Shown here piece by piece: positions 1 to 28,153 of a DNA stretch of 64,000 bases. The notes beneath the pieces are model-generated. The model searched no databases and was not told the DNA's origin. It worked only from the letters and a program-made list of their open reading frames with translations. Both the position numbers and the translations under genes were made by a program. Each line of letters starts with the position of its first letter. The first letter of the stretch is position 1. Source of the stretch: Takakia lepidozioides (lineage: Eukaryota > Plantae > Bryophyta); NCBI GenBank assembly GCA_030704615.1, contig CM060734.1, forward strand, positions 49,848,001 through 49,912,000. The letters run 5' to 3'.

Positions 1-1587
1 AGTTGGCGATGCATAGTCTGCATATCTGGCTTGATGTATGTCTTTGTGTGTTTGTCCAGGGATTGTGTCCAATGGAAAAGACATGTACGTTCTCTTCCCG
101 ACATTGGTACTTTTGGGTCTCCCGTCCCGAACACAATGCGGACAGCGTTGAAGTTAGCTTGAGCACTATCGGCCATGAAACCAACAAAATTGGGAGATGG
201 GAGACCATTGGAGGCCATAACTCGAATGAGAGCTTCCCACATGAGCTGTTGTGAATCTGTGTCCTCTGACTGCATGTCACACACTGCAATTGTCATGACC
301 CGCTGGTACACAGGGTCGTAAACATGACATGCCATTGTGGTCCAGTCTTTAACCCTCTTGACATGATCGAACATAAGGAAGTAGTTGCCAAGATCGCCAC
401 CCTTCTGCATACGTTTAACCAGGCTGACCCCGCTGCCCTCACCTTTTGTGGACATTTTGAACAAGAACATTTTCCTGGCTCCTTGTCCCGGGAAAACGTT
501 GTCTTGGATGTAGTCATACATGCTCCTTTTCTTCAAATCCATAATATTGTCCATATAACCTCGGCTCCCAAAGCCCATTCTTAAAGCGTTCACCTAATTC
601 CTAATGTTTGGAGAAGTCAAAGTTGAGAAATGGTCCATAACAGTGTCCAAAGCCGATCCCTCCAGTATTCCTCCAACCGAATTTGATGCACACAGAATAC
701 GGCTTTCCAGAAAGGACTTGCTCGCCCCCATGGCAATTGCAGATGTGGTTCCAGTTGGATTGGTATCCCACTCTTGCCTTATTAGATGCGAGACTGTGTC
801 AACGCTCTCCCTATAATCCCCCTTGGACACAGGGTGGTTGTGAAAACCGAAATGGACACAGGCTCTAGTCAGGGTTTTGAATCGATGCACCACATAATAC
901 ATTCTGGCGCCACACAAAGCAAGGCAGCAAGGTGGTACCCTACAGAACTTGCACACAAAAGTGTTACTGTATGGTGGTGTCACCCCAGGCTTGAATGGAT
1001 TCTCACTGACACCATCCCATTCGCTTTGGTTTTGCACACCTGACAATGCGAAGTGTCTGCATTTCATGTTCTCGCATTCCAGGTGCCCATTATAGACTGT
1101 TCGCCTGAATATGAGGTTGTCGTTGTTGTGAAAATTGGAGGTTTTTGTGCGGCACCAAGGGTGCCCATCGTGCTTTTTGTCCATTCCTTCCAGGAGACTA
1201 GAAATGCCCCCCAAGCGACCAGGAGGAGGCAGCTCGAAAACAGTATTACCATCAAAAGATTCCGGCAAGAATGCCACCCTCTGAATATTGAAAGTGCTCC
1301 AGTCTATCCCCCTCAACTCACTCTTGAATCCTGCCATCCCACCCATGGCTTTCAGTTTAGGAATGACACTGGTGATCTCCTCCACATCTGCTTCTACATG
1401 TGGACATGGCTGATCCACGGGCGGTATTGCACATGTGTCATTGGAGGATGAGTCCGAAAGCTCAACTACAGTGTTAACGGTACTCGTCTCCTTCTTGACA
1501 ACCACGGGTGTTTTCTCCTGGGCCACTGATGCTGCCGTGCCAGGAGTTACGAAAGATCCTGCAGATTGTCTCAGAGGAGCACTGAGC
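1..1587 (-). pseudogene. Mutator-like (MULE) transposase, 3' part: GCM/WRKY-like Zn domain followed by MULE DDE domain; one in-frame stop; runs off the window
   Basis: ORF 594-1526 (HPWCRTKTSN...CENMKC...CKFC...HFGFHNHP, GCM-like) continues in frame past a single TAG at 594-596 into FDHVKRVKDWTTMACHVYD...FMADSAQANFNAVRIVFG...CLFHWTQSL, which fits the MULE D...D-x2-A-x2-NAV...CxFH pattern. Confidence 0.75.
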
Positions 1588-1943
1588 TGTCAAGTTAAAT
1601 AAGCACAGTGTGAAAACAGTTAGAATAAAACTAGTTATTTGTATTTAACACTTGGATTTAGGTCAAGTGTTAAATCAGGTGTCAAGTTTAGTTTGACACC
1701 TGGTCTGTCTTATCTTCACGAGAGCGGCAGTCGCGCAGCTCATCTCTCTCGAGTTGAGCCTGCGCGACCGAGCTCCTGCATGTGTTTAGGTTTTAGTGTG
1801 CTTATGTAGGGATACAGGTTGTTGTGGGGTGGAGTCCCCATAGCTTGGGGTGCCCCTGGCTCGACTTCAGTTTCAATGAGTGATAGCGATGGATTTTATA
1901 TTTCTTGTGTTGGGAGTGTATGTCCTTTCAAGCTTCTTTATCA
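1588..1943 (+). repeat. 5' terminal repeat (LTR segment B)
   Basis: Matches 13153-13507 with only two C/T differences that I could find; ends TTTATCA; contains hairpins at 1643-1675, 1676-1702 and 1730-1768. Confidence 0.95.
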
Positions 1944-1961
1944 CTCGAGAGAGATGAGCTG
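1944..1961 (+). promoter_or_regulatory. Primer-binding-site position sequence complementary to the element's own LTR (putative self-priming)
   Basis: CTCGAGAGAGATGAGCTG is the exact reverse complement of CAGCTCATCTCTCTCGAG at 1736-1753; there is no TGG tRNA-type PBS. Confidence 0.75.
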
Positions 1962-2327
1962 TTACCTGTGAGTGCAAGGTAGGAGTTGTGGGTTAGCACT
2001 TGCAAGATTACCTGTGTGTAAGTAGTGCTTAGTTTGAGAAGCATATCATTGAATGTGATCACAAGATTCAGCGTGCCCTGAAACGCCTGGAGGATGACGA
2101 TGCCGGAGCCGCCACTGTTATTGCAGTCGCTAAAGCTACCAAGTCACCAGAGGCTTTGGAGTACACGAGGAGAGACTTAAAAATGCAGCAGCAAATGCTA
2201 GTTGGCACCTATGCGTGATCCTTGAAGCTGGATGATTGTTTCCCCAGTAAGCTTAGAGAGAAGCTCTACCGTGCAGCATGGAGCAGCGCTGGCAAGCGGT
2301 GAACGCTGATACCTGCACTCTTGCAGT

Positions 2328-2420
2328 CTTGGAGTCCAAGCTAGGACACAGGGAATATGACCGGTCAACAACCAAGGTGCTGCATTTGATCAACAATCCT
2401 GAAGTGGAGGGAGAATTGCG
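2328..2420 (+). pseudogene. MAD1: Captured fragment resembling spindle checkpoint protein MAD1
   Basis: Translates LESKLGHREYDRSTTKVLHLINNP, which resembles the conserved MAD1 segment SKLGHGDY...TKVLHM..NP. Confidence 0.65.
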
Positions 2421-2690
2421 ATGGCCGCAGTAGCGCCATCTGCAGCGGAGGTGCGGGCGCTGTTGAGAGGCTTTCTCAGAGAAGCGTGAAGATTTACGCA
2501 CTATAATGTGCGGGAGTACGTGAAACGGCGAAGTCGGGAAGCGTTTAAGGACAATTCCGAGCTGTCGGATCTTTCCAGCGTTGTCTCTGCTTTCAATCAG
2601 GGGAAGCAGCAGTTGGAATTGACCAGGCGGCAATCGGTTGTGTATTCGTTGTATCAACCTCGAATGACGAGTGTAATGGACTTGAAGATT
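2421..2690 (+). pseudogene. ISD11: Captured near-full-length LYR-motif protein ISD11/LYRM4 with one in-frame stop
   Basis: MAAVAPSAAEVRALLRGFLREA*RFTHYNVREYVKRRSREAFKDN...GKQQLELTRRQSVVYSLYQPRMTSVMDLK; the YNxREYxxRR signature is recognisable. Confidence 0.75.
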
Positions 2691-3263
2691 CGCAAGGGGG
2701 ACTCGGACTCAAGGACTCGATTCTGCTGGGAAGAAAAGGATTTTGGTCTGCAGATTGGATAGTCCATTCCGATTGTACATCCGCCCGTCAAACTTGCATA
2801 ATAACGTGGAAAGTTTAGGTTTCAGGCTGTCCTGTGTGCTTGATGTGAAATGGTTGAGTGGAATAGTAAAATCTCTAAGAATGTAACAGGCTCGAGACAA
2901 AGTCAAAAGCTGGACTCTGCAGGTGAAGGGGAGTTTTCTTCTGGTTTTCTTTCATTTGGTGAGCATGCCGGGAGCGTGGAGGTGTGAGGAGTGGCAGGGC
3001 TGTCATCAGTTGCATCTTTCTCAGCTGCTGTGTGTTTCACTAGTTGAACATCTTCGAAGCTGAATTACGGCTTAATTGGAAACCCGTACCCTGCTACTTC
3101 TGCCTATCAAGGTTATGGTGGGGGTGGATCAGGGGGGCAGGTGTTCCAGCTCCAGTTGTGTGCATATGTAACCTACCTCCCCGTAATCTCTTTTAGTTCT
3201 CCTCTAGGAGAGGTTACTTACTTGGACTGACAGGACCTGGATCAGTCTGGAAGAAAGTTTGAC

Positions 3264-3480
3264 CTGCGAATAACGTCCGTCCTTGTGATCCTTCTTCCTG
3301 TTCAAGAACCAGTCAGGTATCTTGAACTGCCGGGGATTCGCGACAATCACCATCAAGTTCTCCAGCTCCGCACCCGACAGCTCACCAGCTCTCTTGCTGG
3401 TGTCGACGTCCGCCTTCTTGCAGACCAGGTTAGCGAAACGGCGCCCCACTCCCTTGATGGAGGTCAAAGCAAACATGATC
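3264..3480 (-). pseudogene. RPS18: Captured internal fragment of 40S ribosomal protein S18 (uS13)
   Basis: [26 protein letters not shown]...RAGELS...[25 protein letters not shown]; N- and C-termini are absent. Confidence 0.93.
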
Positions 3481-4205
3481 GCTACCTGAATTGAGATAGT
3501 GCCTTGCCCTATCGGAGTATGCAGACCTATGCTCCAAGCTTCAACTAAATGACGAAGCTGATCTGGTTACTCTCCACTTTGTGGATAGTCCAACACAGTT
3601 GCCTTTGTCAATAAGCTCCTTCACCACTTCCACATTTGACACTAGGTCCGAAGATTGTCTGAAGAGAGAGCAAGTGCAGATGGCAGCTGCCCACCAGGTT
3701 CTGACAGAGTATCATCAGGGCTTGTCCCTGCATTAGGGATGGCTCGAGTGCTTGCATCACGGGAAATAGATGCCTGACGCTGCACAGGCCACCACCATCG
3801 CCATAGCCATCCACCCGAGCTCGAGAGTCGTCGCTGGAGCAAAGCAGCTCACTAAGCGAGCAAGTCTGTGGTGCATCTGTAACCACAAATGAAACCCGGG
3901 AACGGTTCTTAATGGCGGGAACGTTTTGGTGTTAAAAAAAAAAAAAAAAAACTTTGATATAATTTAAATGATTTAGAGCCTGGTTGGTCATAACTTTGTC
4001 AAATGGACTCCGTTTGACTCAGTTTTTGGGTGGATAGCTGCAGAAAGGGGAAATCTACCTATCTAGACCTGGTTTCTGTTTTTGGGACTCTGCTAAAAAT
4101 CTATGGAATTTTTAGAGTGTGAGTGTGCCATGAAAGATCCACAATCCTGTTTCTAGAACCTGTGCTGGTCTATATTAGAGACAAATCTGTGGATGTACTC
4201 CTTGT

Positions 4206-4955
4206 ATGGCTGGGGGAAATGAGGACGTAATTGAAGGGCAGGTCTCTTCTCTTAGCCTGTGCACACAAGGGGACAGGATCTATGTTTCCCAAGGAACTCA
4301 GACTGATTTGAGTGGAGAACAGTTGGACGAGTTGATTGCATACTGGGAGTCAGGCATTAGCAGTAGACAACAGACTGCTGTAGTTGGCATTGAGGGCCTC
4401 AATATCGCCTTGGACAGTCAGAACTCTGTTGGAGCCAGCAGTTCTGCAGCTGTAAGTGAAATACCAAAGTGGGTGAAAGCTAGGCTTGGAACACAGCCAA
4501 AGACAGCCCCGGGGACCAAGGTGTTCAGCCACAAGGCCGTGGTGTACTGGAGCAGAGGAGCAGGAGCTGCACAAGTTTGTGCAATTAGACAGTGTTGCAG
4601 TCGGACACGCTCTGCACAAGGCAACCACGAGCGGGGGTTCATTAGCGAGGACAAGTTTGTTCTGTTTGAAGGCGATCCAGTCATTCGCAATGAAGACACC
4701 CGCAACCGTCTCAAAGCTTTCGAGTTGAGAGACTATCAGACCCTACCTTTGTTTTCTTTAGTGTTCAGTGAGCGGGAGATAGCAGAGTGTTGCTTTGTCT
4801 CTACCTGGCAGAAAGAGGAGGAGGGTTGGTTAGAGCGAGCTACTGTAGCTTGGGACAAGGTTAGTGGCAGGTTTCTGGACATAGATATACCTCCTACACC
4901 TTACCATCAAGCAGAGCGAGGCACTTTGAGAGAAGTCTGGAAGTTGATAGCATAG
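4206..4955 (+). CDS. Additional 249-aa ORF upstream of gag, unknown function
   Basis: Intact ATG-to-stop ORF inside the retroelement, same strand as gag-pol; no recognisable domain. Confidence 0.55.
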   Translation: MAGGNEDVIEGQVSSLSLCTQGDRIYVSQGTQTDLSGEQLDELIAYWESGISSRQQTAVVGIEGLNIALDSQNSVGASSSAAVSEIPKWVKARLGTQPKTAPGTKVFSHKAVVYWSRGAGAAQVCAIRQCCSRTRSAQGNHERGFISEDKFVLFEGDPVIRNEDTRNRLKAFELRDYQTLPLFSLVFSEREIAECCFVSTWQKEEEGWLERATVAWDKVSGRFLDIDIPPTPYHQAERGTLREVWKLIA

Positions 4956-5654
4956 ATCAGGATTAGATCTTGCTTGGGCGGGCTTCTATTCTTCCCCTCC
5001 ATCTCTGTACTATTTTCATTACCTTGTACTTGTAGTTGCCAAAGCCTCTCTGGTGGAGGCCAGTCAGTCCGGGGTCTTGGGCTGGGATATTCTGCAGGAT
5101 CAGCGTTGCTGCTGGATTTTGGTGTGGGGGTGTTGATGTTTTGATTTCTTGTGTTTGGATCCCCCCCAACACCTGCATGCTTGACTGTGCGCCATGTTGG
5201 TTTTGTGTGGGCGCTTGCTTTCATAGGGATTAGGCCGGATTTGATCACCGGTCAATCCTAGAGTATGCTGTCGGTGGTGAGGCTGGAGTGATGACCAGCA
5301 AGACCACCAGTGTTTCTTCTATGGTGAGGCTGGGTTGATGACCAGCCAACCATAGGAGTTCTTGCGGTGGATGCAGGTGCAGGTGCCCTGAGCCATTGGG
5401 ATATGACCCTTAGACTGCAACAGGTGCCCACCCGTGTCACTATTAGATTAGTACTAGAGCCTTATAGTGTCACTGGAGGAGGTGCACATTGTGAGTGTCA
5501 TTACGGAGTTACCCAAGGGTTTTGAGGGGAGTACGGCTACAGGCAGTAACAGTGAGAGTGGGTTCACAAGACGAGGTATTCGGTTCAGACCACCTTCACC
5601 GCCCCCTCAATTACTGTAGAGTCAGACACAGGCTCGGAGGCTTCATCAACAGGT

Positions 5655-6960
5655 GTGCACTTTCATTCGCCATTGTTGTGGGACGACATGGAGGAGATGT
5701 ATGGAGCTACCAAGGGGCCTCGTAGGTACTCTGGAGCTGTGGGCACAATCGAGTTGGATGACTTTATCCAGGAGTTCGACAGCTGGTGTGATTTGCAGCA
5801 GATGCGCAATCCACATCTATTCACCCCATTCATGGCGTGGAAGGGACTGTTCCAGCATTTGGAAGGCCCGCCTATGGACGATTACCACGAGTTCAGGCGA
5901 GGACATGAAGCAGAGATTGAGGAGTGGAGGATGTATTGGTCACCTGACTACATCTCCATTACTCGAGGCATGACGCGACCAGTAGCTGCATCAGTACCAA
6001 TAGCTCCCACTGCCAGCACTAGTAGTGGAGCAGGTAGTGCTGGTACTTCTGCAGGTGGTACCAGTTCAGAAGGTGCTACTACTCCTCCTGCCACAGCTAC
6101 AACACATGTGCCTAGATTCAACCCGGTGGTGGAGTTCTTCCAGGAGTTGCGGAGGAACTACCAAGGTGTACGGACAGAGAAGCTGCGAAGTTTGCAAGAC
6201 TTCCAGCGCAAACCCAGTGAGAGCCTGCGAGAGGCGTACACTCGTATGAGGCGCTTGATAAGTGTGACCCAAGGGGTTACTGAAGCTCAGGCAATCCAGT
6301 TTTGGTATGGAATTCTGGACAAGGAGCTCAAGAGAAGGGTGCGAGATGCAACCCTGTTACAAGCAGCCCAACCCACATTAGCAGATGTGTTTCTGCTGGC
6401 TGAGCGGATTGAGCTCAACATGGTGGAGGAACGAGTTGTTACAATTGGATTTGGCAAGGACATGCCTGTACGGGGCACAGCTGTCAGCCCACAAGCACAA
6501 GGGACTGCCCAACAGCGTGGTCAGGGGGGCAAGGTTGCCCAGCCCAAGTTCCATGGAGCTTACAGGGGCCTCAGGTGCAAAGGCCCGTGGCATCTTTTGC
6601 AGGCCAACAGCAACCAGGGGTGATATGTTGGACATGTGGAGGACCCCATGTCAAGAGAGATTGCCCAGAGAGTGGCAGAAGGCCGGCACAAGCACAGCCT
6701 GCACAGTTGCAGTGTGGGCATTGTGGCAATATGGGCATGGAGATGCCCAGTGTTATGACTTGCATCCTGAGTTGCGCCCAGGCCAGTTCCAAGGGAACAA
6801 TGGTGGCCGGGGGCGAGGTGGACCAGCCCAAAGAGGACGAGGTGGTCGGGCACGAGGTGCAGGCCAAGGGCAACCTCCACATGGCCAAGGACGCGGAGGT
6901 CAGGGTGTTGACCAAGGCATGGCCAATCGGCTTCAGCAGCTAGAGCAGAGGCTCGCTGCC
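5655..6960 (+). pseudogene. gag: Gag with two zinc knuckles (frameshifted)
   Basis: Retrotransposon gag-like LQDFQRKPSESLREAYTRM...QFWYGIL; CWTCGGPHVKRDC and CGHCGNMG-HGDAQC lie in adjacent frames (frameshifts near 6567 and 6735). Confidence 0.85.
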
Positions 6961-7689
6961 ATGGCTATAGCTCAGGCGGTACCGGCTCCCAGGCGGGATG
7001 GCCCACCTCCTGCTCCTGAGGGAGGAGATATGGGCGGAATGGGATTCATGTGCGGAGCAGCACTACCATTAGAGCAGGTGGGGTCTGCTGCAGCCGTGAC
7101 TCGAGGAGCAACACGAGTTCCTGAGCCACGAGGTGCAGAGGTGGAGTTGGATCCACAACGTGGGGAGGCAAGCCGTCAGGCAAGGCTGCCTCAGTCATTC
7201 ACCTTGGCGGAGACAGTGTCAACGCCATCCATGGCACCTAGTTCTCGCCCGACTGTTACCGAGGCGGAGGTTACTATGCCATTGGGGAGAGCTACACGTG
7301 CAGCACTGACACCTGCTACCAAGGCTAGTGCAGCCGGTGTGTTATTGGGAGCAGCCACCTCTGTGTGTCAAGCCCCATTGTTCTCGGCAACCATGATTGC
7401 GACGCCGGGGGTGAGGCCAGCTGCAGTGTTCAGACTAGCAGCAACACTCTGTGAGAGTGGGGAGGTCACTTCATCTTCTGCGGAGTTAGTGGAAGGTGTA
7501 GTGGCAGAGGGATCCTCGGATTTGAGGGTCAAGACTGCCACGGCAGCGCCCTGGCAAGCTGCAGCTGCCAGATTGACGGAGCTGCCAGCTAGGCCAGCCT
7601 TTGAGCGCGCCATGGTGACACCTGGAGTTGTCTTGTTAGACAACCAGGGAGGCATTTTCACTTTGAGTGGACCGGCAGGCAAGAAGTAC

Positions 7690-7990
7690 CGGCCACTGCG
7701 GGTCTTGTTGGACTCAGGAGCTCAGCCACTGATGTTGGGCAGAGCTGCTATTGCAGGTTTGGGCCTCATGGAGGCGGATATGGAGCCTTGTCCTTTCCAG
7801 ATACAGACATCTCTGGGAGGATCAGAGCAGGCTCGCGGCATGACACGGCATCAGTTGGCTATTAGACTGCAGCCGGATCATCCTGTAGATGGCTCAGTGA
7901 TGCGAGCCAAGGCCATTGTGACAGACGCGGTCTCTTACGATGTCCTCGTTGGTGGGGCAGTGTTATACCCCATGGGCTTCACCCTGGATT
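7690..7990 (+). CDS. Aspartic protease domain of the polyprotein
   Basis: RVLLDSGAQ active-site motif and downstream YDVLVG motif in ORF 6385-9669. Confidence 0.85.
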
Positions 7991-8421
7991 TCTGGGAGGA
8001 GTCAGCATCCTACAGGCCTGGATGGCAGTCAGGGGATGGTCGCCGTGCACAGCTCCCTGTGACATTCATTGGGGGTATTGCAGCTGCTCAGCGGGGCAAG
8101 ATGCCAACACTAGCCGCCTTCACAGCTGCAGTCAGCTGGCCTGGAGAGTTGCTGGAAGGCAATGCCATGCAGAGGATGTGCCACCTCCAGCAGAGCAGGA
8201 TGACATGCATGGTACGGCGGAGTTGCCTGCCATGGTTGCTCACACCCGTTGTGGGGTACGAGCAAGATTTGCAGCAAGCTGCTGATGGACGGGTGCAACA
8301 AGCTTGGGAAGAAGCTTTTGTACCGTCAGGAGAGGAGGAGAGTGCGGTGATTGCACCAGGGCCACCTCAGTTGTCGCCATTGGACACCACACCTCTTGTA
8401 TGGCAGCGGCCGGATGAAGGC

Positions 8422-9383
8422 ATTTGCCTTCTGGACTTGTTTGGCGGGATCAGCACCGGATTGGCTGCTGTGCTACAGGCAGGTGTGCGGGTAAGGCGTT
8501 ACCTGTATGTGGAGAGGGATGAGACTGCACGACGCGTCTCACTGCGCCATGTGGCTCAGTTGGTACAGCAGTACCCTGACTTGTTGCCTGTGTCTGCAGT
8601 TCGTGGATACCAACAAGCCTTGCCAGCAGACATTTCCTTGTTGGGGGCGCAAGATTTGGAGCAGGTTGGCTCCATTGATCTGATAGTGGCAGGTTGGCCC
8701 TGCCAAGGGCATTCATCAGCCGGGCATGGCAATGGATTGCGAGACTCGAGGACGGGTCTGTTTTGGGAGATGGTGCGGATTTTGCGCTGCTTGCAGCTTC
8801 ATCAAGCTGTATCTCCAGCATACATCTTGGAGAATGTACCACTGATGGGTGATTCTCGGGCCAGGGTGATGGCCAGTGTGCATCAAGTCCGGTCGTGGCT
8901 TGGGTCAGCAGTGTTGCTGGATGCAGCTGCAGTGGGGTCACGGGCTCATCGTCCACGACTATGGTGGACTAACTTGATGCCACCCGCACTGCTCAAGCGT
9001 GCATTTGATGGGGTGCAGCGGCCAGCACACCTCACCGTGGATGGCATTTTGGACACAGGAAGGCAGTCTCAACGTGTGAGACACGATGACCGTTCGCCTT
9101 TGGCAGTGGTCAACAGGGTGGGTCAACCACGAGCAGCATTACCTACACTGCTCAGCTTCCCAGGATCCCATGCTTTTCGGGATGGTGGACCTGGCCTCCT
9201 GTGGGATGCTCAGTTGCAGCAGTTAGTGGAGCCTAATGCCGACGAGCGAGAGCGGGCTATGGGGTTTTCCACTGGGACCACGGCGGTGCCTTCTCTTTCT
9301 GAGGCATCACGTCGTCAGGTGTTGGGGCAAGCAATGGATCTCAATTGCTTGACCTGGATTGTCAGCTTGGCTATGGCTGAGCA
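8422..9383 (+). CDS. C5-cytosine DNA methyltransferase domain (DNMT3-like) within the polyprotein
   Basis: Uninterrupted motifs in canonical order: I DLFGGISTG, II YVERD, III DI, IV IDLIVAGWPCQG (catalytic PC), V RTGLFWE, VI ILENV, VIII AHRPRLWWTN, IX ERERAMGF, X RRQVLGQAM. Confidence 0.93.
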
Positions 9384-9830
9384 ACGTAGAGTGCGGAGTG
9401 CACTTCCCTTGACGGTCTCTCTGCCTACCGAGACGGTACAGGCAGCGAGTGGGGGCGAGCCGGTGAGGACCACGAGGTGTAGACATCCATGGCACATGTG
9501 GGAGGTGCTCGAGGTTCAGAGGGAGTTGGCAGCGAAGGCAGCTGTGATGGATGAGGTTGGGGATTCTTCTCGGGATGAGGAGGTTCTCAATGATGAGATG
9601 ATGGGGCAGGATGAGGCCTTGTCATTGACTGAGCAGGAAGGGGGTACTGCTCAAGAGGTTGCAGCATAGCAACCAGCGGGACGACGTCCTCTACCTCTAA
9701 GCCCACTGGACTTAAGGTTGCAGTTACGGAGGACAATTGGGAGCCTGGCATTGGACCCATTGTCACCGGAGGAGAGAGACGACGTATACGGCGGTTCCTG
9801 AGGGCTTACAGGAATTGCTTTGCCTTCAGT

Positions 9831-11160
9831 TTGAAGGACTTGGGAGCACTGAAGGGTCAAGAGATCCGTATTGAGTTGGCCACTGACACGCCAATCTTTC
9901 GGAGACCCTATAGATACAGTGACATGGAGAGGTCTTTGATTCAGATGAGGACTCAAGATCTCTGGGAGGCAGGTTTGGTGGAGCTCTCTGGTGGAGAGTA
10001 TGCTTCAGCCACAGTGATGCCAGCCAAGAAGGATGTCTATGGCAATTGGACGGAGAGACGTATGTGCGGTGATTACCGGCCTGTAAATCGTCAGACCAAG
10101 TCCGATAGGTATGCCATGCCAACACCAGAGGAGATCTTTGATGCCATTGGGCATTCCAAGGTCTTTAGCACGTTGGATTTACGATCCGGATATCACCAGT
10201 TGCCGATCAAGGAGGCGGATAAGCAAAAGACGGCATTCTGGGGGATCAATGAGCACGGGAAGGATTGCCTATACCAGTGGCGGTTCTTACCATTTGGGCT
10301 TAAAAACGCTCCCGCTGAGTTTCAAAGAGTCATGGACAGGATTCTAGCAGGGGTGGAGTTTGCTCGGTGCTACATAGATGACATCATCATCTTTAGTGCT
10401 GCGGTGGAGGAGCATGAGAGACACCTTCAGGGGGTATTTGAGCGCTTGAGGACGCACGGATTGAAGTTACATCCGGGCAAGTGCAAGTTTTTCCACAACC
10501 AGATTGAGTATCTGGGTCACATGATATATCCTGGAGGATTGGGGGTACAGCAGACTAAGGTAGAGTCCATTGCACAGGTTCCACGTCCCACGGATGTGAG
10601 CCGAGTTCGAGCTTTCATGGGGTTAGCAAACTATTACAGACGGTTTGTTAAGGGATTTAGTGCCATTGCAAAGGCTCTAACCAAGCTGACCAAGGTGGAC
10701 CAGGAGTGGCAGTGGGAAGATGAGCAAGAACAAGCTTTTCAAGAGCTCAAGGCGAGGTTGACCTCGGCGCCCATCTTGAGACGACCTATCAGGGGGCGTC
10801 CTTTTCAGCTGCATACAGATTGGAGCATGCTGGGGCTTGGAGCGGTGCTCACACAGGTGGATGATGAGGGAAGAGAGTTCGTAGTGGCTTATGCTAGTCG
10901 CTCGAACAATGCTGCAGAGTCTAAGTATAGCTCATATGAGGGAGAATGCTTAGCTGCAGTGTGGGCCGTGGCACACTTCAGGTGCTATCTATACGGCAAT
11001 CTCTTCACCCTTGTCACGGATCACCAACCACTCAAGTGGTTGATGGAGTCAGACAAGCTTACGGGGAAGCTTGCACGGTGGGCACTCATCCTTCAAGAGT
11101 ATGACTTTCAGGTGGTGCATCGACCGGGTTTGGTCAATCGAAATGCAGATGGGTTGAGTC
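9831..11160 (+). CDS. pol: Reverse transcriptase and RNase H
   Basis: [31 protein letters not shown]; RNase H TDWS...EGECLA...TDHQPL; preceded by TAG at 9667-9669 and a frameshift. Confidence 0.95.
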
Positions 11161-11559
11161 ACAATCCATGCACGAGCCAGCAGGATGACACTGGAGCTCG
11201 GTGGCATGGTGAGACGGACGAGGAGATGGTGCCCGGATGGCATGCATCTGCATTTCTGTGTATCTTGGCAGCGGAAGGCCAGGTTGGACCTACAACAGGG
11301 ATGACTGTAGATCAAGTGTCTGAGGACCCTGAGGCCAGCAATGAGCAGGGTGGCGCCAAAGATATACATGAGGATTCAGTTGTGTTGGACTACCTCCGCA
11401 TTGGAGACACGGCAGCCACTATGACTGCCAAGGAGAGGGATCGGATCCTACAACGAGCCAAGAGGTTCAGGTGGGAGGGGACACACCTGCTCCGAGTGTG
11501 GGAGGATGGTCGAGTGAGGATTGTGCCTCACCCAACACAGCGGGCACGGTTAGTGCGGC

Positions 11560-12805
11560 ATGCCCATGAGGAGTTGGGGCATTTTGGGGTGCGACGCACT
11601 CATAGTCTACTGCAGGGGTAGTATTGGTGGCGTGGTATGCACACAGAGGTGCAACAATTTGTGGCTAGGTGCATGGTGTGTGACAGGGTGCGTGCTTCAT
11701 TCAACGCCCCTACTCCACAATTGCACCCTCTTCCGATCATGGGATTGGGCTACAGGTGGAGTCTTGACTTCGCAGGGCCGTTGCCACTGACCATGCGCCA
11801 CAACAAGTACGTGTTGGTGATGGTGGAGCACTTCTCCAAGTGGATTGAATTGGTTCCATTGCCTGATAAGGCTAGTGAGGGAGCTGCGTATGCATTCCTG
11901 GATTGTGTGCTTAGCCGATTGGTGCTCCAGCTGAGGTACTCACGGACCAAGGGAGAGAGTTCTTGGGGGAGTTTCAGGCTTTGTGTGACAAGGCCTTGAT
12001 AGACCACCGCACCACTTCTCGGGATCATCCTGAAGCCGATGGCTTGGCAGAGAGAGTTGTTCAGACAGTAAAGAGGGGTTTGCGCAAGTATGGCTTGCAG
12101 AAGGGACACCTAGGAGATTGGGACCTTCAGTTACCCTGGTTAGCCATGGGCTACAGGTTCAGCAAGCAAGCATCACTTGCCTCCTTCTCACCATACTTTC
12201 TTCTCTTTGGCCGAGAGCCGGATTTGCCTACATCCATTCGCAGAGAAGCTGCTACAGTTCTTAACCTTGACGATCCGGACGTGTGGGCACGTGCATGTGA
12301 GCAGCGTGCAGAGTTGTTCAAGAGAGTCATGCCTATGGCTTTCGAGAACCTTGCCATTGCACAACACCGTGATACGTTGAGGTATGCTACCATACGTGGT
12401 GGGGGCTATCGTCCTGGGGTTCGGAGATTCAACCCTGGTGACTATGTCTATCTGCAGCAGACTGCTCCTACGACCCTGGATGTGACTGCAGGACGTGTTA
12501 TTTTGAGGGTTCGAGAGGTCTTGCCCTCAGGCGTCTTGGTCTTGGAGGGTCGGGATGGCATCACTTGGAAGGACCATGTGCGTAATTGTGCGCCATGTCA
12601 CCTTCCGAATGTCGATGGCAGGATTGACCCAAACCTGGCAGTGGTATCTGCAGGTTTGAGGTGCATGTTGTGTGGGTCTGCTAAAGGGGCAGCCACCATG
12701 CTGGTATGTGATCGGTGCTCTAGAGGTTGGCATATGGGATGCTTGACTCCACCTCTTGAGATGGTTCCGGATGGGGATTGGTTCTGTCCACATTGCATTG
12801 GATAG
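11560..12805 (+). pseudogene. Integrase (HHCC + DDE) with C-terminal PHD finger (12662-12796)
   Basis: HEELGH...CMVC, SLDFAGP, TDQG, DGLAER; C4HC3 motif CMLC...MLVCDRC...WHMGC...WFCPHC; stop at 11619 and frameshift near 11920. Confidence 0.9.
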
Positions 12806-13054
12806 TGGGAGTGAATACAACCATGGGAGGCTAACAAGAAACGCAAGGCCCAGCTACTAGGAGACCTTGAACACACGAGATCTTGGCTCAAGTTCATAGA
12901 TTGCAAGACGGCGACTAACGATGGGGCTACTCTTGTACCCGGCCTCTTGGTTGATAGAGTTTGAGCACGATAAAGACAGTGATAGAGGACTTAGTACGGC
13001 TGTGGCTATTACATCTTGTAGCTATCTGGAGGTAGAGGGACCTATCCACCAGCT

Positions 13055-13065
13055 AGGGGGGCGAT
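13055..13065 (+). promoter_or_regulatory. Polypurine tract
   Basis: G-rich run TAGGGGGGCGAT directly before TGTGCTAG at 13066. Confidence 0.7.
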
Positions 13066-13595
13066 TGTGCTAGACTACTTTATTGTGCCTATATGTGTGG
13101 TGTGGTCTGGACAGCGATGTAGTTGTGTAGCGATATGTATGCGCACGACAGCTGTCAAGTTAAATAAGCACAGTGTGAAAACAGCTAGAATAAAACTAGT
13201 TATTTGTATTTAACACTTGGATTTAGGTCAAGTGTTAAATCAGGTGTCAAGTTTAGTTTGACACCTGGTCTGTCTTATCTTCACGAGAGCGGCAGTCGCG
13301 CAGCTCATCTCTCTCGAGTTGAGCCTGCGCGACCGAGCTCCTGCATGTGTTTAGGTTTTAGTGTGCTTATGTAGGGATACAGGTTGTTGTGGGGTGGAGT
13401 CCCCATAGCTTGGGGTGCCCCTGGCTCGACTTCAGTTTCAATGAGTGATAGTGATGGATTTTATATTTCTTGTGTTGGGAGTGTATGTCCTTTCAAGCTT
13501 CTTTATCTATTGTGCTAGACTACTTTATTGTGCCTATATGTGTGGTGTGGTCTGGACAGCGATGTAGTTGTGTAGCGATATGTATGCGCACGACA
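13066..13595 (+). repeat. 3' terminal repeat block A(13066-13150)-GC-B(13153-13507)-TAT-A(13511-13595)
   Basis: The 85-bp segment A occurs twice, apparently identical; B matches 1588-1942. Confidence 0.92.
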
Positions 13596-13850
13596 GAGCA
13601 CCCTGTATCTGCCTGGAGGCACTCTCCATTGTGTGGCTGGTGCAGTATGGGAAGGTTTCTGGAACACGTACTTGAGCAGTTTTCCATTGGCATCGTACAC
13701 TTCCCTTTGAAGGAATAGAGTTCCATTTTCCAACCGAAACTGCGTTGCGAGGACGTGTTCATGCACCAGCGCAAAACCATCATCTTCCACCTCGTAAGAA
13801 AATGGCACAGGGTGGTCCTCACTGAAGAAGTCCGCGTCAAGGGAGCCCAT
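13596..13850 (-). pseudogene. 5' part of the same MULE-like transposase, split by the Gypsy insertion
   Basis: Removing 1588-13595 and one GAGC copy gives a continuous frame: MGSLDADFF...QWRVPPGRYRVL|SAPLRQSAGSFVTPGTAASVAQEKTPVVVKKETS. Confidence 0.85.
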
Positions 13851-15032
13851 GGCCTCGATGTTGCTTCAGAAAGTAGAGTTCACAGTCCGACGGTGCTTGT
13901 GAATGCAAATTGTGTGGGAGCGGAGTTTTTGGCGTCCTCACAGAGAATTGCAGGTATCGCTGCGGCTTGCAGATCTCCTAACGCGGGTTTCCACTTCTGT
14001 GAAATGTCTCCCCATGCGAACCAAGCGCATGGTCACAGAGTGCCCGAATGCGGAGTCCATAATGTCAGCCCTAATCCTAGAATCCAACTGTTTTTTCACA
14101 AGTGCCCCACCAGTGCATTCGTTGACAGATTGATTGACAGAGCCGCCATTTGGTTGTCATGTCAGAGAGGCCAGAAGAGATGCCCATTTCCATTTAATTT
14201 TAACGGCACCTGCACCGCTGTACAACTGTACATACTTGACATTCCTCTGGAACATCCCAGAATAAATTGCCCGATAATGAACTTTTTCAGATGAGAGGTG
14301 ATTAGACCCCAACGATTTTTGGATGGATAAGGATCCAATGATCTCCGCCGATATTTCATAACGATTAGATGGACACGTGTTCGCCATGCATGTGGAATGA
14401 GTCAGTGGCGCACTAAACGTTGCGAGCGAACATCTTGGCGTTGAAGGCCTTGCGATGAACCTCCCATAGTCCTCTTTTTTCCCTCTTCTCCTTATTGTCT
14501 TTGCAACCCTGGATTCTGCAGAGACGGTGACCCAATTCCGAGGGAGAAGCAAGCGTCGAAGAACACTTTATTTCACATCAAACAAGCAAAGGGCACGCGC
14601 TAAGGAGAGGATGAGGAAGGCGAGATGGGAACTTAGAATGGGAGAAGAAACATCCGGCGTAGAGGAAGACGAAGGGCAAAACAGGATTCTGCAACCGCAG
14701 TGTGGAGAGGAAGGTCTTAAAGTGAACCCGGAGGCGACCGATGAGCAACCTCCAATAGAAGGGGGGGAGGACGAGGAAGTGAGCTGGGCTCGGGAGAAAG
14801 CACTGCGAGTAGAGAAACAGGTCTTCCAAGAGCAGGGAGAACAAACGGACGCGGAAACGATGTCGTCTGCCCTTGTTTCGCACCATCGGGACCTCCTTGG
14901 AAGCATGCTACCTCCAGACCAAATGGAAAGATTGAATGCGTCAAGAGCATCATCAAGTGCAAAGAAGAAACCGGAGGTGGCTATGAACTCTCTTTCTCTC
15001 TCTCTGATTCTGTCTGGTTCTTGCTAAACATT

Positions 15033-15645
15033 GAGGTCGACATCAACCTTGCGTCAACGCAAGGTTGAAGTCGACCTCCTTTCTCTCCCTCTGATTCTGT
15101 CTGGTTCTTGCTAAGCATTGAGGTCGACATCAACCTTGCGTCAACGCAAGGTTGAAGTCGACCTCCTAAGTGTATATATTGGGCATCAAAACAGTGCAGA
15201 TGCTGCACTACAATCAAGCTAGACAGACATGGATGCTTGCGACGCATCATCAAGTTCGAAGAAGAAGAAGTGACAGCAATCTCCTTTTCCTGTAGCTTTT
15301 GTGTTTGTTCAACACCGATCCGAGAGCTCGCAATCAACCTTGCGTCAACGCAAGGTTGATGCCAACCTCCATGGTGTATGTTAGAACTTCTAGTGAAACG
15401 AACAGATGCCGCACAGGAATCAACATTGCGTTGACGCAAGGCTGGTTTTGATGATTTTTTTGTTCAATGGAAGCGTCCGATCTCTCATACCCTGAACTGT
15501 AAGGTAGGGAAAGTTGATTAGTTGAAGCTCCCAAAAGAACCCTGCGTCAACGCAAAGCATTTTTTTGCTTCAAAAGTCTTTCCTGTATGTCTTTCAGTCT
15601 AAACTACATCCCCATCAATCAACCTTGCGTCAAAGCAATGTTGAT
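15033..15645. repeat. Cluster 1: six copies of palindrome TCAACCTTGCGT-NN-ACGCAAGGTTGA
   Basis: Copies start near 15043, 15130, 15334, 15420, 15537 and 15619; the first two extend to 46-bp palindromes and belong to an ~87-bp tandem duplication. Confidence 0.9.
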
Positions 15646-18154: not shown

Positions 18155-20555
18155 GGATTTCAAAAGTAGAATTCTCAGTGTTGCCTTCCTGCATTTCAAT
18201 ATCTTTTTTCCGGATGTGTGTTCTTTTTCGTTTTCTGATCGAATGACTGTCTGGGTTTTTTGTGTGTGATTCAGGTATATATATCATATCCTCATACCGG
18301 GAAAGTACCTTAGCAATGACCCAGACTTCATCTATTCATGGGCTGACCCCTCCAATGACAAGACAATGTACACGGCTGGTATTGCCAAAGACTGGAGCAG
18401 GGCGCACTTCCGAGACTGTGGGTGGTACCTCGACCTGCCAAAACAGGACACTCCATTCGATGAAGTTGTTTTGAGAAACCTGAACGACAATGCCGTAGCG
18501 ATTGCCCCATTGGCTGAAAAAGACATCCAGGACAGAATCATTTCGGCTCTGGCTGCAAAAGAGCCCGAGAAAACTGCTACTCCAAAACGAAAGGGGAAGA
18601 TTGTCGGGGATCCGAAGGGGAAGGGGAAAAGTGCAGCTCCGCAAGGACAGGGACCGTCAGAGGTTCCTGAAAGACAGCCTTCTCCCGCAAGGAGGGATAG
18701 GAGAACATCAAAGTCGAGGGAGCAAGTTTTCGAGGCGAGAGAACATCCCTCCAGGGTTTTGGGCCAGTTCAATCGTAAGGTGCTGAATGAAAGTTTTCTT
18801 GCAATGATGGAGTCCAGGAAGTCCACATTCAAAGGGGTGCCCTCGAAATCATGGGACATGCTTGTTTCGTTCCTCACTCAGGTGAACACTTATGTCTAAA
18901 CTGTTGTATGAATAATTGTGTTTTGGCAGCTTGTTGTGGCTTGTCCAGGGGATCAATCTCCTGTTAGATTTGGATTGGGCTTCTTACACTGTCTCATGTT
19001 TTTGGCTGTAGGTCACAAAAAGTCCGGAATGGGTGAATGGAGTTCAGCAGGCATACGCGACTGACCTTGTGGTGTTGGACATTCCTGACGGTTTTCCTGT
19101 CCCTGATGTGTTTCCTTCCAATTCGACCCCGACTTGGAACAAATCGGATTCTCGTTACTAGCAGTGGGCTTTCTCGTTCAGCAACAAGTTCCTTTCGGAC
19201 TCGGGGGCTCTTCTTCTCATGCAGTCAAAGGACATGTCGGCTCGAAGAACTCTTTTCAGCTACATGAAAGCTTCCGGGTTTCGTGTCATCAAAACTTGGA
19301 CATGCATCAATACTCTGCCTCTTACGAAGGGCGAGTTCCCAGGGCAGAAAGTGAGTTGGTTCCTTTCAATTGATGTTTTGTGGTTTTTCGGTAAATCGAA
19401 ATGGTGGGTTATGTCTTCTGTCTCATTCTCTCTTCGTGATTATTGACAGACATGGGTGTTCGAAGCTTTGTGCCTGGTGAGGCGGATGGACACTCTTCCT
19501 GCTGGTGTTGCTGAGTTTCAGTTGAGGGACCTTGCAGCTCACATTGACCCCACCTACGAGCCTGTGGAGGATGATGTTATCTTCAATTACGTCGACTCGG
19601 GTCGGACTATGAAAAGGTCGAATGGTGTCCCTTGGAGAGGTGCACGGGAGAAATCTCCAGCTTTCATGCAGACTTTGGTGGAGACATGCAGCCGTCATGG
19701 TGGACGAGTGGTTGACTTGTCTATGGGCACAGGTGGGGCCTTTCACATTGTGTTTGACATATGGGCAGTGACCTTAGGGAAACCCTGTTTTTATTTCTCG
19801 TTCTTCTTGGATTTGCAGGAGCATGTTTTCATGCTTGCAAGAGCGCCGGAAGGCACTTCTTCGGCATGGAAGCTGATACGGAGCTCTTCTCAAGCGAGCT
19901 TCGTCAGCTTGAGTCGGGCACTACTTCTGCCCCATCCACAGAGGGACTTCTGGAGGAGCCCGAAGCGCCTGACGAGGATCTGGACGTGGACTCCGATTTT
20001 GAGTGTGAGTAAGTTCTTGTGTAGTCGTGCAAAATATGTTGCATTTCCTTGTGTCGTTCCCATTCGAGAAATAGTGGCTTTCGTTGTCTATATCTGGATG
20101 TTAACATCTACCACCATTCCTCTTCTTGCTTTGCAGAGTTCAGCACCAGTCATTGAATCAGCAGACACCTTTCGGTTTCCAAGGATACTACATGTCCCCG
20201 AGCCCCCCTAGATCCAACCGCTTGCCGGTTTACGCGGAAGCTTGCGCACGAATGTTATCTGAACAAACACTGTATTCGCATCTCCATGAAGGTCGTGGAA
20301 AAAAAAAACGTCATGGATGTGCTGCTGTATTCATAGATGATATTGCTGTAAACTCTGGAAGTGGTTCCTCTGAAACCTCCAATATTTCTTTAGGTTCAAG
20401 TACCGAGGCTCAATAAATTGTGTTTTGGTTTTGCTTCCATCTCCAAACTGTTTTTCAAGTTCTTTGCACGTTCCCGTAAGTACAGTTAGGGATTGCCTAG
20501 GATAGGTCTTCGGATTGCGGAATTGAAAAATGTTTGTGTCGCGGCCCTTTGCCTT

Positions 20556-23500
20556 TGAACGAGGCAATTGAGAGGGCTGAATGTTTCTCGGATGTCCCTA
20601 GGGGTGAAAGACAAGGCCGTATGGAGCTGAACCACAAGAAGACCCGGCGGGAAGGTGACTCCTTCCGACCGGAAAAGAAGTGGGATAGGCCACGCGGCGA
20701 AAATGGCACGTGGAAATCGAAGGGAGGGCCTTCACACGTCAAGGCGACACCCGGTGCTTCGAAAGGAAAAGCGGGTGGAGCGGCTTATGGCAGACAGAAG
20801 GCGACCTTTGATGGAGTGTGTTTCAATTGCGGGGAGCCCGGGCACATGGCCAAGAAGTGCACGAAGCCCCGGCAATTGAACATGACTTAGGCGACCACGG
20901 AGCTGTCGGAAGATACCATCAGTCGCTTGGTGGAAGCGGTGGTCGCCAGGACTTGCAAGGTAGGCAAATTTTCTTGTGAGTTGTATCAGGAAACTGGCGC
21001 CCTACGAAAAGGGAGTCAGTTATTGTTCGTGGATGGGATGATATCCGGAACTAACGTGTCGTTGTTGGTGGACACAAGAGCGTCGCACTCCTTCATGACA
21101 CCGGCAACAGCACAAAAGCTGGGACTCCCGACAAGTGACGTTGGGGCCTCTATTGAGGTGGGTTCTGCCAAAGGAGAACCACAGTTGGCGACAAGGTTGG
21201 CGATTGATGTTCCTCTTCAACAAGGGAGTTGGGAGGGACGTGAGAACTTCACCATCTGCGAGACCGATGGAGTGGATCTCATTTTGGGGATGACCTTTTT
21301 GAGCAAATCCGGAGCGGTCATAGATGGCCGCAAGAGAGTAGTCACGCTGCCATGTGGGAATGGTGGCGAGGTATTACGAGTGTCTGAAACGCCCAAATCC
21401 GTGGGAGGGCGAATAAACCTTCTATCAGCAAAGGAGTGGGCCGTGGAGGAGGCACACGAGCCCCAGTTTTTGCTTTACATTAGAGAAGTGAAAGGAAGGC
21501 GATGGGGAACCGAGCCCAGATTGGATCAAGGGGATTTTGGAGAAATACCAGGATGTGATGCCGGAGGATTTACCAAGCGGCTTGCCACCGCGAAGAGGAG
21601 TTGACCACAAGATTGAGGTGATACCGGGATCGGAACCGCCTGCCAAGGCGCCCTACCGGTTGAGCCACCGAGAGTTGGTCGAGCTGAAGACTCAGCTCAA
21701 GGATCTAATGTCAAAGGGGTACATCCGGCCGAGTAAGTCACCTTACGGAGCCCCGGTGCTATTCGCAGACAAGAAGGATGGGACGTTGCGGATGTGTGTC
21801 GATTACAGGGCTCTGAATAAGGTGACTATCAAAAACCGGTACCCTTTGCCAAGGATCGACGACCTCTTCGATCGGTTGGCAGGAGCGAAGTATTTCAGCC
21901 GGATCGACTTGCGCTCCGGCTATCACCAAATTCGGGTGGCGGAAGGAGATGAAGAGAAGACCGCGTGCAGGACAAGGTATGGTTCATATGAGTTCTTGGT
22001 GATGCCTTTTGGGCTCACCAATGCACCAGCGACATTTAGCACGCTGATGAATAGCCTTTTCCAGGAGTGGTTGGATGACTTTGTGATCGTGTACATCGAC
22101 GACATCTTGGTGTACTCGAAAACAAAGGAGGAGCACCTGGAGCACCTCAAAAGGGTGTTCCAAAAATTGCGAGAAGGGAAGCTGTATGCCAAAGCTTCAA
22201 AGTGCGAATTCGGGGTCACGAAAATGGAGTTCTTGGGCATGTGATTACACAGGATGGGATCAAAATGGATGACAGAAAGGTGAGGGCGATCTTGGACTGG
22301 GAGCCTCCGACTTCGGTCCCGGGAGTGCGTTCCTTCCTAGGACTCGCCTCCTATTACTGGAAGTATGTGAGAAATTTCGCCAAGATCGCGGGGCCGCTGT
22401 CAGACCTTGTGTGTAAATCTAAAGTCTGGGCATGGAACACCTTTTGTGGCCAAGCTTTTGCTGAATTGAAGCAGCGGATGGCGGAAGCTCCAGTCTTGAA
22501 AATCCCGGAGATCGATCGTCCCTTCGAGATACATACAGATGCGTCGGACTTTGCGATTGGGGGTGCACTTATGCAAGATGGACGTCCAGTGGCTTACGAA
22601 AGTAAGAAACTGAATGAAGTGAAGCGACGGTGGCCGACGCACGAGAAGGAGATGAAGGCGGTGGTGCACTGTCTTGAGCTCTGGCGCCACTATGTTGGTT
22701 CCAACCCAGTGAAGGTGTTCACGGACAATGTCACGGTGAAGTATTTTGCCACGCAGCCCAAGTTGTCCCCAAAACAACTTAGGTGGCAAGATACTTTGGC
22801 GGTGTTCGACGTGGATATCCAGTACAAACCGGGACGAGACAACGTGGTAGCCGATGCTTTAAGTAGAAAGCAACAGCTCTTGTTGGTGTACAAGGGCGAG
22901 ACGGCACTCCAAAGGAAGATCCGGAAGGCTTGCCGGAAGGATGAGCTGGCAAAGTCCGTGATGCAGGACTTGAGGATGGGGATTAAATCGCAGTTCCACT
23001 TGCAAAATGGATTGCTCCGGTATAAGCAAAAGCGTCTCTACGTGCCGAAGGGAGGGATCAGAGATAGCCTCTTGAGAGAATGCCATGATAGCCCGCTTGC
23101 GGGCCACGGTGGAGCCAAGCGCATTGCGGCACTCTTGAAGAAAGAGTATTTCTGGCCCAAACTGAGGGAGGAGGCAGAGGAGTATGTCAAGACATGCACC
23201 ACATGCCAACAAAACCGGAGCGAGTACAAAAAGCAAGCGGGGCTGTTACAACCCTTGCCGATCCCAGAGGGGACTTGGGAAAGCGTCTCGATGGATTTCA
23301 TGACTGCTATGCCGCTGTCAAAAGGATTCGATGCAATCATGGTGGTGGTAGATAGGTTCAGTAAAATGGGCCATTTCATCCCCACCAAGGAGACGGCAAC
23401 GGCGCAGGAGACAGGGTGACTTTACTTCGCCCATGTCTTAAAGCATCATGGAGTCCCGAAGGATATTGTCTCGGACCGCGATCCAAAGTTTACGAGTAAA

Positions 23501-26500: not shown

Positions 26501-26526
26501 GACCTCAAAAGCGGAAGAAGCGTTGA
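20556..26526 (+). pseudogene. pol: Disrupted gag-pol of the chromovirus
   Basis: ORFs 20534-20890, 20927-21604, 21537-22244, 22202-23419, 23525-24028 and 26299-26526 are successive pieces broken by stops, frameshifts and the 24024-26188 insertion. Confidence 0.9.
24024..26188 (-). mobile_element. Nested 2165-bp insertion, probably a solo LTR
   Basis: Absent from the duplicate at ~28530; GAGG duplicated (24020-24023 and 26189-26192); ends TGTAGTGTGAA / TTCACACTACC; no coding capacity. Orientation is inferred. Confidence 0.7.
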
Positions 26527-28151: not shown

Positions 28152-28153
28152 AA

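Follow-up and report, generated by a model that had tools for sequence, protein, structure and literature searches.

The window, that is, the whole 64,000-nucleotide stretch of DNA analyzed, carries a Ty3/Gypsy element of 12,008 bp (1588–13595) that begins with TGTC and ends with GACA. The element is flanked by a target-site duplication. Contigs of runs X1, X2, and X6 represent the empty site, joining 1583/1584 to 13596/13597 and skipping 12,012 bases. The ORF of another repeated, transposon-like gene on the minus strand is split by the element (3–1587 and 13596 onward); this ORF gave no Pfam match, and uninterrupted copies of it are present in the runs. The insertion site and the coding parts of the element are as follows.

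1584–1587 (+): left copy of the target-site duplication, GAGC, from the sequence
2424–3830 (strand not assigned): low-copy cargo in the leader (PF05347, PF00416), with a depth ∼100–1000-fold below that of the body
4179–4955 (+): 258-codon stop-free stretch upstream of gag, within the repeated part, putative only
5688–9669 (+): ORF1, with Gag, zinc knuckles, protease, and DNMT; a single frame in the Marchantia protein P0124 and in locus L038, offset twice in the window copy
7705–7725 (+): aspartic protease active-site motif LLDSGAQ, from the sequence, in a region conserved in relatives
8422–9383 (+): DNMT3-like C5 cytosine methyltransferase domain, motifs I–X intact, from motifs, Pfam, and structure comparison
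9667–9675 (+): conserved stop TAG followed by CAA CCA, a type I (tobamovirus-like) readthrough context, from locus comparison
9888–11108 (+): reverse transcriptase (YIDD at 10371) and RNase H of Ty3/Gypsy type, from Pfam
11565–12604 (+): DDE integrase, H2C2 and core (rve), from Pfam, with a stop at 11619–11621 and an offset near 11915
12662–12802 (+): PHD finger at the integrase C-terminus (PF00628, E 5e-11)
13596–13599 (+): right copy of the target-site duplication, GAGC, from the sequence and the empty-site contigs

The order Gag, protease, RT, RNase H, and DDE integrase is that of Gypsy elements, as are the TG...CA type ends (TGTC...GACA) and the 4-bp duplication. The best solved relative of the RT is the Ty3 RT (E 2e-71). 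No Pfam protease match was found in the element ORFs, and a tyrosine recombinase had no match in the nine element ORFs scanned with Pfam. Assignment to DIRS/Ngaro elements was ruled out by the DDE integrase, the protease, and the 4-bp duplication. The solved PHD fingers nearest to that of the element belong to CHD4, ATXR5, PHF12, KDM5A/B (KDM5 PHD1), BAZ2, and PHF21A. These relatives mostly read unmethylated H3K4, which animal DNMT3 reads through its ADD domain.

The window copy carries frame offsets near 6570 and 6735, just after 9675, and near 11915, together with the stop at 11619–11621 and a locally diverged stretch near 8160–8270. With frame breaks in gag, after the conserved stop, and in the integrase, this copy is broken and not autonomous. 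The breaks are not family-wide because most of the break sites fall at or close to positions where other copies in the runs have a different length. Contig depth over the body was ∼100 to >1000 times that over the leader cargo segment, and DNMT depth was similar to RT depth in three runs; contig depth is not copy number, and these values are read only as a highly repeated element in which the DNMT is generally retained. The leader cargo comprises a broken LYR/ISD11-like frame (+) and a ribosomal protein S18 exon with intron-like flanks (−, 3261–3500), and it looks like a gene-fragment capture by the window copy or a small subfamily. Near 3768–3810, a short piece of the leader matches a high-depth X5 contig. 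The 258-codon stretch had no match in Pfam, the Atlas, the fetched loci, or the fetched proteins, and its reading as a gene is therefore unsupported.

The original prediction placed an intronless cytosine methyltransferase with the full set of catalytic motifs in canonical order at 8422–9383, and this was borne out. Motifs I (LLDLFGGISTG, 8428–8460), II (YVERD, 8506), IV (GWPCQG, 8692–8709), VI (ILENV, 8824), VIII (AHRPRLWWTN, 8944), IX (ERERAMGF, 9244), and X (RRQVLGQAM, 9310) follow one another from I to X with PC, ENV, and RxR intact. The PF00145 match in this ORF (E 1e-12) lies over the curated cutoff of the Pfam scan and is the sole Pfam match there; DUF3444 was not found. The domain has no intron and shares the open frame 6382–9669 with the protease motif at 7705. 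The prediction had also put the DNMT inside the polyprotein, between protease and RT. Its position in one frame with the protease stood, but a TAG at 9667–9669 separates it from the RT.

The nearest solved structure by sequence was DNMT3A (E 6.5e-11), followed at a distance by the best DRM (7e-6) and M.HhaI (3e-4). An AlphaFold model of the domain from a 24-sequence alignment reached a pLDDT of 80.5 and a pTM of 0.85. With this model, Foldseek returned DNMT3A as the top match (E 2.6e-18, TM 0.67/0.78), and 33 of the 33 rows listed were DNMT3A/B, with a low identity of 19–22% over the fold. In both the solved-structure sequence search and the fold search, DNMT3 is thus a nearer relative of the domain than DRM, DNMT1, DNMT2, or bacterial enzymes, and the predicted DNMT3-like, not DRM-permuted, character of the enzyme holds. 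In DRM enzymes, motifs VI–X precede I–V, an order absent here. Host plant DNMT3 genes are multi-exon cellular genes with a C-terminal DUF3444, whereas this domain sits inside a retroelement. Capture of a host DNMT3 or DRM gene was ruled out by the lack of DUF3444, of the permutation, and of introns.

A search with the DNMT domain found 258 relatives of similar length (120 listed) and 68 longer ones. Named relatives came from Marchantia polymorpha, M. paleacea, Calypogeia fissa, Riccia sorocarpa, and three Sphagnum species, with identities of at most 74%. Other named matches were a Symbiodinium-type gene model and fish DNMT3 (E ∼1e-3), and one further named match is a JGI/NCBI record labeled as a bacterial MAG. 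Viral contigs gave one distant match only (35%). In the Atlas, the top cluster of the DNMT search was PF00145, Eukaryota, mostly Streptophyta, and the next two, of equal score, were viral.

The domain is retained family-wide in these relatives, and the fear that it might be missing from other family members was unfounded. By sequence, it is not catalytically dead either: of 200 full-length, diverged relatives, 196 retain the catalytic Cys and 198 the motif VI Glu, and the two motif VIII Arg are almost without exception conserved. In the least saturated locus pairs, dN/dS of the DNMT was 0.12 (L038/L039), 0.11 (L038/L048), and 0.16 (L003/L001), and that of the protease was similar (0.09–0.12 against 0.11–0.16); a stop-free DNMT domain occurs in only 7 loci, and pairs with the window are saturated for dN/dS. 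These ratios indicate that the domain is under purifying selection. The window DNMT is described as an intact DNMT3-type domain, with predicted activity in de novo cytosine methylation of DNA.

A chance passenger, an assembly artifact, or an algal contig could in principle explain a methyltransferase at this place, and the several frame breaks and picked-up host gene fragments of the window copy agree with a passenger. This reading is refuted, and we consider it extremely improbable. The domain occupies the same position in dozens of independent loci and in named bryophyte proteins, it is under purifying selection, and its depth is like that of the RT in three runs. The host gene DRC1 in the window is moss-like. 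Its flagellar exon at 62111–62458 shares 71% identity with Ceratodon purpureus, 60% with Riccia sorocarpa, and 43% with Mesostigma (8 matches among 259 candidates). These identities most likely point to a moss host rather than an alga or flowering plant, in line with the land-plant origin first proposed.

Elsewhere in the window, host genes with introns include an RNA pseudouridine synthase-like gene (by eye; 46602–49305, −) and DRC1 (60194–63047, −). A Gypsy element without DNMT lies at 19447–30000 (+) with repeats at ∼2.3-kb spacing, and a decayed one without DNMT lies at 31343–35871 (−) with a chromodomain-like end (by eye). Tandem units of 87 bp with an internal palindrome occupy 14992–15645 in three to four copies. 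The CpG observed/expected ratio was 0.50 for the element, 0.86 and 0.96 for the two neighboring Gypsy elements, and 0.47–0.50 for flanking DNA. Because the element value equals that of the flanking DNA, CpG depletion gives no indication of self-methylation.

The DNMT also occurs in a second architecture. In a representative library, 271 clusters matched with an E of at most 1e-30, and 144 among the best 150 were classified. In 15 of these the DNMT lies after the protease or before the RT, in 76 it lies between RNase H and integrase, in 52 the domain stands alone, and 1 is ambiguous. The second arrangement reads RT-RNase H-DNMT-integrase-PHD and includes P0209, a Scenedesmus (chlorophyte) pol, the one named organism among 10 looked up. 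Of 85 proteins with this arrangement, 50 lack the motif IV Pro and 41 have Glu there, and the Cys is invariant. A FastTree analysis of 82 domains placed the second architecture as one group (support 0.94) inside the first and grouped the window with liverwort proteins (0.999); the DNMT trees have weak deep nodes and one or two outgroups, and were built without host plant DNMT3, DRM, or Klebsormidium. The DNMT domain seems to have moved within pol.

The stop between DNMT and RT was compared across loci from a metagenome scan, in which 103 stretches were confirmed and 80 kept, with one viral locus and the window added. The spacing from DNMT end to RT start was 350–750 bases in 50 stretches, 43 of them distinct. 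Of the 43 distinct loci, 42 have a stop at the corresponding position (33 TAG and 9 TAA; L070 has a deletion), with about 36 of the 43 forming one subfamily, the independent lineages numbering five or six, and synonymous sites saturated between lineages. The stop is in frame with both DNMT and RT in 29 loci, and the remainder have spacer indels. CAR-YY follows the stop in 40 of the 42, the hexamers being CAACCA, CAACCC, CAACTA, CAGTTA, and CAATCA; the second post-stop codon encodes Pro, Leu, or Ser, depending on the locus, with YY retained. Strict CARYYA occurs in 6 of the 42 (the window, L003, L038, L039, L048, and L076). As far as described in PMC3542737, UAG-CAR-YYA is the type I readthrough signal of tobamoviruses, CARYYA works with UAA too, and the tobamovirus signal has the same stop and six-base context as the window element. 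In the window family, the signal lies between a retrotransposon DNMT and RT, and the largest subfamily mostly has CAACCC, unlike the tobamovirus UAG-CAR-YYA.

Intact relatives encode Gag-protease-DNMT, one conserved stop, and then RT-RNase H-integrase-PHD in the same frame. In L038, one frame of 2407 codons extends from Gag to PHD, interrupted only by the stop at codon 1359. A −1 frameshift at the DNMT–RT junction was rejected, since the reading frame of natural loci continues across the single stop. Re-initiation is disfavored in L038, L039, and L048 since no Met occurs within 110 codons past the stop. In the largest subfamily, an ATG lies 7 bases past the stop, the stop context is CAACCC, one letter off consensus, and re-initiation is possible there. 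The Marchantia and Calypogeia ORF1 proteins terminate shortly past the DNMT domain. Occasional readthrough of UAG-CAR-YY would very probably yield RT and integrase as part of a predicted fusion protein, so that every Gag would carry protease and DNMT, with RT and integrase scarce. Because the conserved stop is a plant-virus readthrough signal, the enzyme is likely made at Gag level.

The ends of the element differ from an ordinary LTR pair. The repeats and the sites adjoining them are as follows.

1588–1942 (+): repeat A1, left end, starts TGTC; probable 3′ part of the true LTR; 2 mismatches against A2
1736–1754 (+): stretch of 19 nt in A, exact complement of the site after A1; putative transcript 5′ end and self-primer (fold z −7)
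1943–1961 (+): putative primer-binding site of self-priming type, from complementarity, with no tRNA-type TGG start
13051–13063 (+): polypurine tract AGCTAGGGGGGCG, directly 5′ of B1, conserved in L059, L069, L072, and L038
13064–13150 (+): repeat B1, ends CACGACA; probable 5′ part of the true LTR; identical to B2
13147–13156 (+): palindromic junction GACA-GC-TGTC between B1 and A2, candidate integrase cut site, from locus comparison
13153–13507 (+): repeat A2, from comparison with A1
13509–13595 (+): repeat B2, right element end, from comparison with B1; the A2–B2 join is the candidate LTR–LTR circle junction

The layout is A1, body, B1, GC, A2, T, B2. The near-identical terminal repeats of the original prediction are therefore in part confirmed: only 2 of 442 repeat bases differ, which argues for a recent insertion, but the repeats are split in the order A-body-B-A-B and are not an LTR pair. 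The same order occurs in L059, L069, and L072, and right ends of B-A-B or B-A occur in L006, L021, L037, and L078. The B1–A2 junction corresponds to both element ends joined through 2 bases, and the GACA-NN-TGTC palindrome is found likewise in L006, L021, and L059 and in the distant L038 and L048. A self-complementary site of 17 nt with different letters is present in L059; in the other 10 loci tested it spans 6–11 bases. Duplications of 4 bp lie outside A-start and B-end in the window, L059, L072, L036, L043, and L045, with 3 of 4 bases in L026.

Two full terminal LTRs bounded by a primer site and a polypurine tract, as in a standard Gypsy element, are not present. These two sites instead bound B+A, the middle of which forms the inserted ends. 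Because the polypurine tract adjoins B1 and the self-priming site adjoins A1, the true LTR would be B+A. Since the inserted ends nevertheless fall at the B–A boundary, the insertion cut would lie inside the LTR, and cutting a two-LTR circle at the palindrome would give exactly A-body-B-A-B. We consider it probable, from the complementarity at the primer site, that the element RNA primes its own reverse transcription, which would make an ordinary linear DNA with B+A as the LTR at both ends. With somewhat less assurance, we propose that these ends are joined into a two-LTR circle, which the DDE integrase would cut at the internal GACA-NN-TGTC and insert with a 4-bp duplication.

Several features of other copies bear on this route. 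In run X2, 34 contigs depart from the element immediately past 13150 into unrelated sequence (agreement 0.36), the pattern that many insertions ending at B would produce. The element terminates at the first B in seven distinct loci (L014, L023, L026, L032, L036, L043, and L052), and those with both ends present carry the 4-bp duplication (L036 and L043; 3 of 4 bases in L026). One-LTR circles would yield such A-body-B copies, which fit this origin and also B–B recombination after insertion. The A–B join differs by 1–2 letters between loci, and L045/L046 retain 9 primer-site letters, as expected of end-joined circle junctions. L045:12566–13461 (also L046) is an internally rearranged copy in which part of A is inverted; a 4-bp duplication flanks this copy, which is possibly an inserted autointegration circle.

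The split direct repeats A1-body-B1-A2-B2 are also those of PAT/Ngaro elements. They could have arisen by PAT/Ngaro-like replication combined with a DDE integrase and without a two-LTR circle, in which case the transcript would run from inside A1 to inside B2 and the ends would be rebuilt from the internal B1–A2 copy. The repeat order is that of split-repeat elements of DIRS order, and KnitGypsy-Dnmt3 as described in PMC5890265 is comparable. This route appears unlikely to us. The polypurine tract adjoins B1 and the self-priming site adjoins A1, like those of a normal LTR B+A; the A–B join varies by 1–2 letters and keeps primer-site letters in L045; and a DDE integrase and a protease are present, with no tyrosine recombinase found in the 9 ORFs scanned. 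The two-LTR circle is our preferred route.

Foamy virus offers a precedent for integration from a circle, since its integrase cleaves the palindromic LTR–LTR circle junction according to the portion of PMC1180852 consulted. There, the DDE integrase cuts the LTR–LTR join itself, whereas the window element has a separate site inside the LTR. Because the proposed cut site lies inside the LTR, the inserted copy would be permuted. Tf1/Sushi and Tcn1 (Neumann et al. 2019, PMC6317226) share, as described there, a primer site complementary to the element's own 5′ region; the window element differs from them in its PHD finger in place of a chromodomain, its DNMT, and its permuted ends. The main text of that Gypsy survey contains neither "methyltransferase" nor "PHD".

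Taken as a whole, the account we favor, with a likelihood moderately above even, is that the window contains a broken recent copy of a moss and liverwort family whose DNMT is likely made at Gag level and packed into the particle and is predicted to methylate the new DNA copy, which would then insert, probably from a circle. The step of methylation itself is slightly favored: released DNMT would methylate extrachromosomal DNA de novo, and this DNA would bear the mark by the time it enters chromatin. As a lead only, the PHD finger may direct insertion toward nucleosomes whose H3K4 is unmethylated. Gag-level supply of the DNMT is not a general need because the second architecture has the DNMT in pol.

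The DNMT might instead act on chromosomes, at existing copies, rival elements, or host loci, as a copy-number brake or chromatin modifier. Its conservation and the selection on it are equally compatible with such a role, output at Gag level would be far above the need of one cDNA, and a host-beneficial slowing of transposition is discussed in the accessible text of PMC5890265. We regard a chromosomal role as improbable, since the RNase H-DNMT-integrase order of the second architecture points to the cDNA or the integration complex, and DUF3444, the plant host targeting domain, was not found. Less probable still is that the domain is kept for a noncatalytic or RNA-directed role, such as nucleic-acid binding in the particle or RNA methylation. 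The algal Gypsy enzyme was without activity in yeast in the account of PMC5890265, and 50 of 85 second-architecture proteins carry another residue, mostly Glu, at the position of the motif IV Pro. Against this, Cys, Glu, and both motif VIII Arg are nearly invariant in the 200 relatives, and the fold is that of DNMT3, not DNMT2. Methylation of new DNA by the packaged enzyme is hence retained as the preferred role.

Among published elements, KnitGypsy-Dnmt3 of the charophyte Klebsormidium nitens comes closest, a Gypsy element with DNMT3 and DIRS-like repeats that was called a lineage acquisition (de Mendoza et al. 2018, PMC5890265, available text). Gypsy domains, an intronless non-permuted Dnmt3, purifying selection, and the repeat order A1-ORFs-B-A2-B are shared with the window element. 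According to its authors, the algal DNMT lies in one ORF with RT and RNase H; the window family has a conserved stop between them, and the single-ORF arrangement is found in the second architecture instead. KnitGypsy-Dnmt3 resides in an alga and the window family in land plants, and the two are likened by published description. In the same source, the Klebsormidium Gypsy DNMT gave no methylation signal in yeast, which the authors call inconclusive. The survey in that paper is based on proteomes and its species table includes Physcomitrella; "Marchantia" and "Sphagnum" have 0 occurrences in three of its supplement files. No readthrough, self-priming, or repeat mechanism appears in the text examined, and the main text never uses the term PHD.

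Host DNMT3 of non-flowering plants (PpDNMT3a/b; Yaari et al. 2019, PMC6453930) shares the canonical-order DNMT3-type catalytic domain. As described there, PpDNMT3a/b have a C-terminal DUF3444, whereas the window DNMT has none, is intronless, and is fused to Gag-protease. SymbioDIRS-Dnmt3 (PMC5890265) and EpiLTRs/DAM-LTRs (bioRxiv 10.64898/2026.05.21.726589) are, by the accounts consulted, likewise retroelements with their own DNA methyltransferase; they belong to other element classes and represent separate acquisitions. SymbioDIRS-Dnmt3 is reported in PMC5890265 to methylate CG de novo in yeast. In the available text of the bioRxiv paper, this kind is mentioned only as "streptophytes (Gypsy-DNMT3)", previously described, and PMC12344493 likewise refers to such elements only as earlier reports from "streptophytes". 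A literature search with most subscription journals outside its scope found no paper on Gypsy-DNMT3 in mosses or liverworts, its readthrough, or its end mechanism.

Herein, the window element is a new land-plant form of Gypsy-DNMT3 element, distinguished by a readthrough-type stop that is conserved and by LTRs that are circularly permuted. In the searchable papers, this kind was published only for an alga, and it is now found in mosses and liverworts. We suggest, tentatively and with clear doubt, that an ancient green-plant lineage combines two-LTR circle integration with Gag-level DNMT3 supplied by readthrough that methylates the circle before insertion. Retrotransposons bearing a silencing enzyme were previously known from two algal groups with poor genetics, and that work did not settle what the Gypsy enzyme does. 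Annotated proteins that span the whole of ORF1 and have intact motifs (P0124, also designated Mp4g09160, P0129, and P0131) exist in Marchantia polymorpha, a species for which gene editing and methylation mutants exist, and self-methylation is therefore directly testable in a land plant.

The placement of the stop predicts an unusual dose, with a methyltransferase at coat-protein level. LTR circles are usually regarded as dead ends; the permuted ends predict that they are the normal insertion substrate of the window family. As no LTR pair is present, LTR-pair finders would be expected to miss such elements, and their ORFs can be miscounted as host DNMT genes. If the proposed account is true, land plants would possess a mobile source of de novo methylation in these elements, of which mosses and liverworts, Marchantia included, carry many recent copies.
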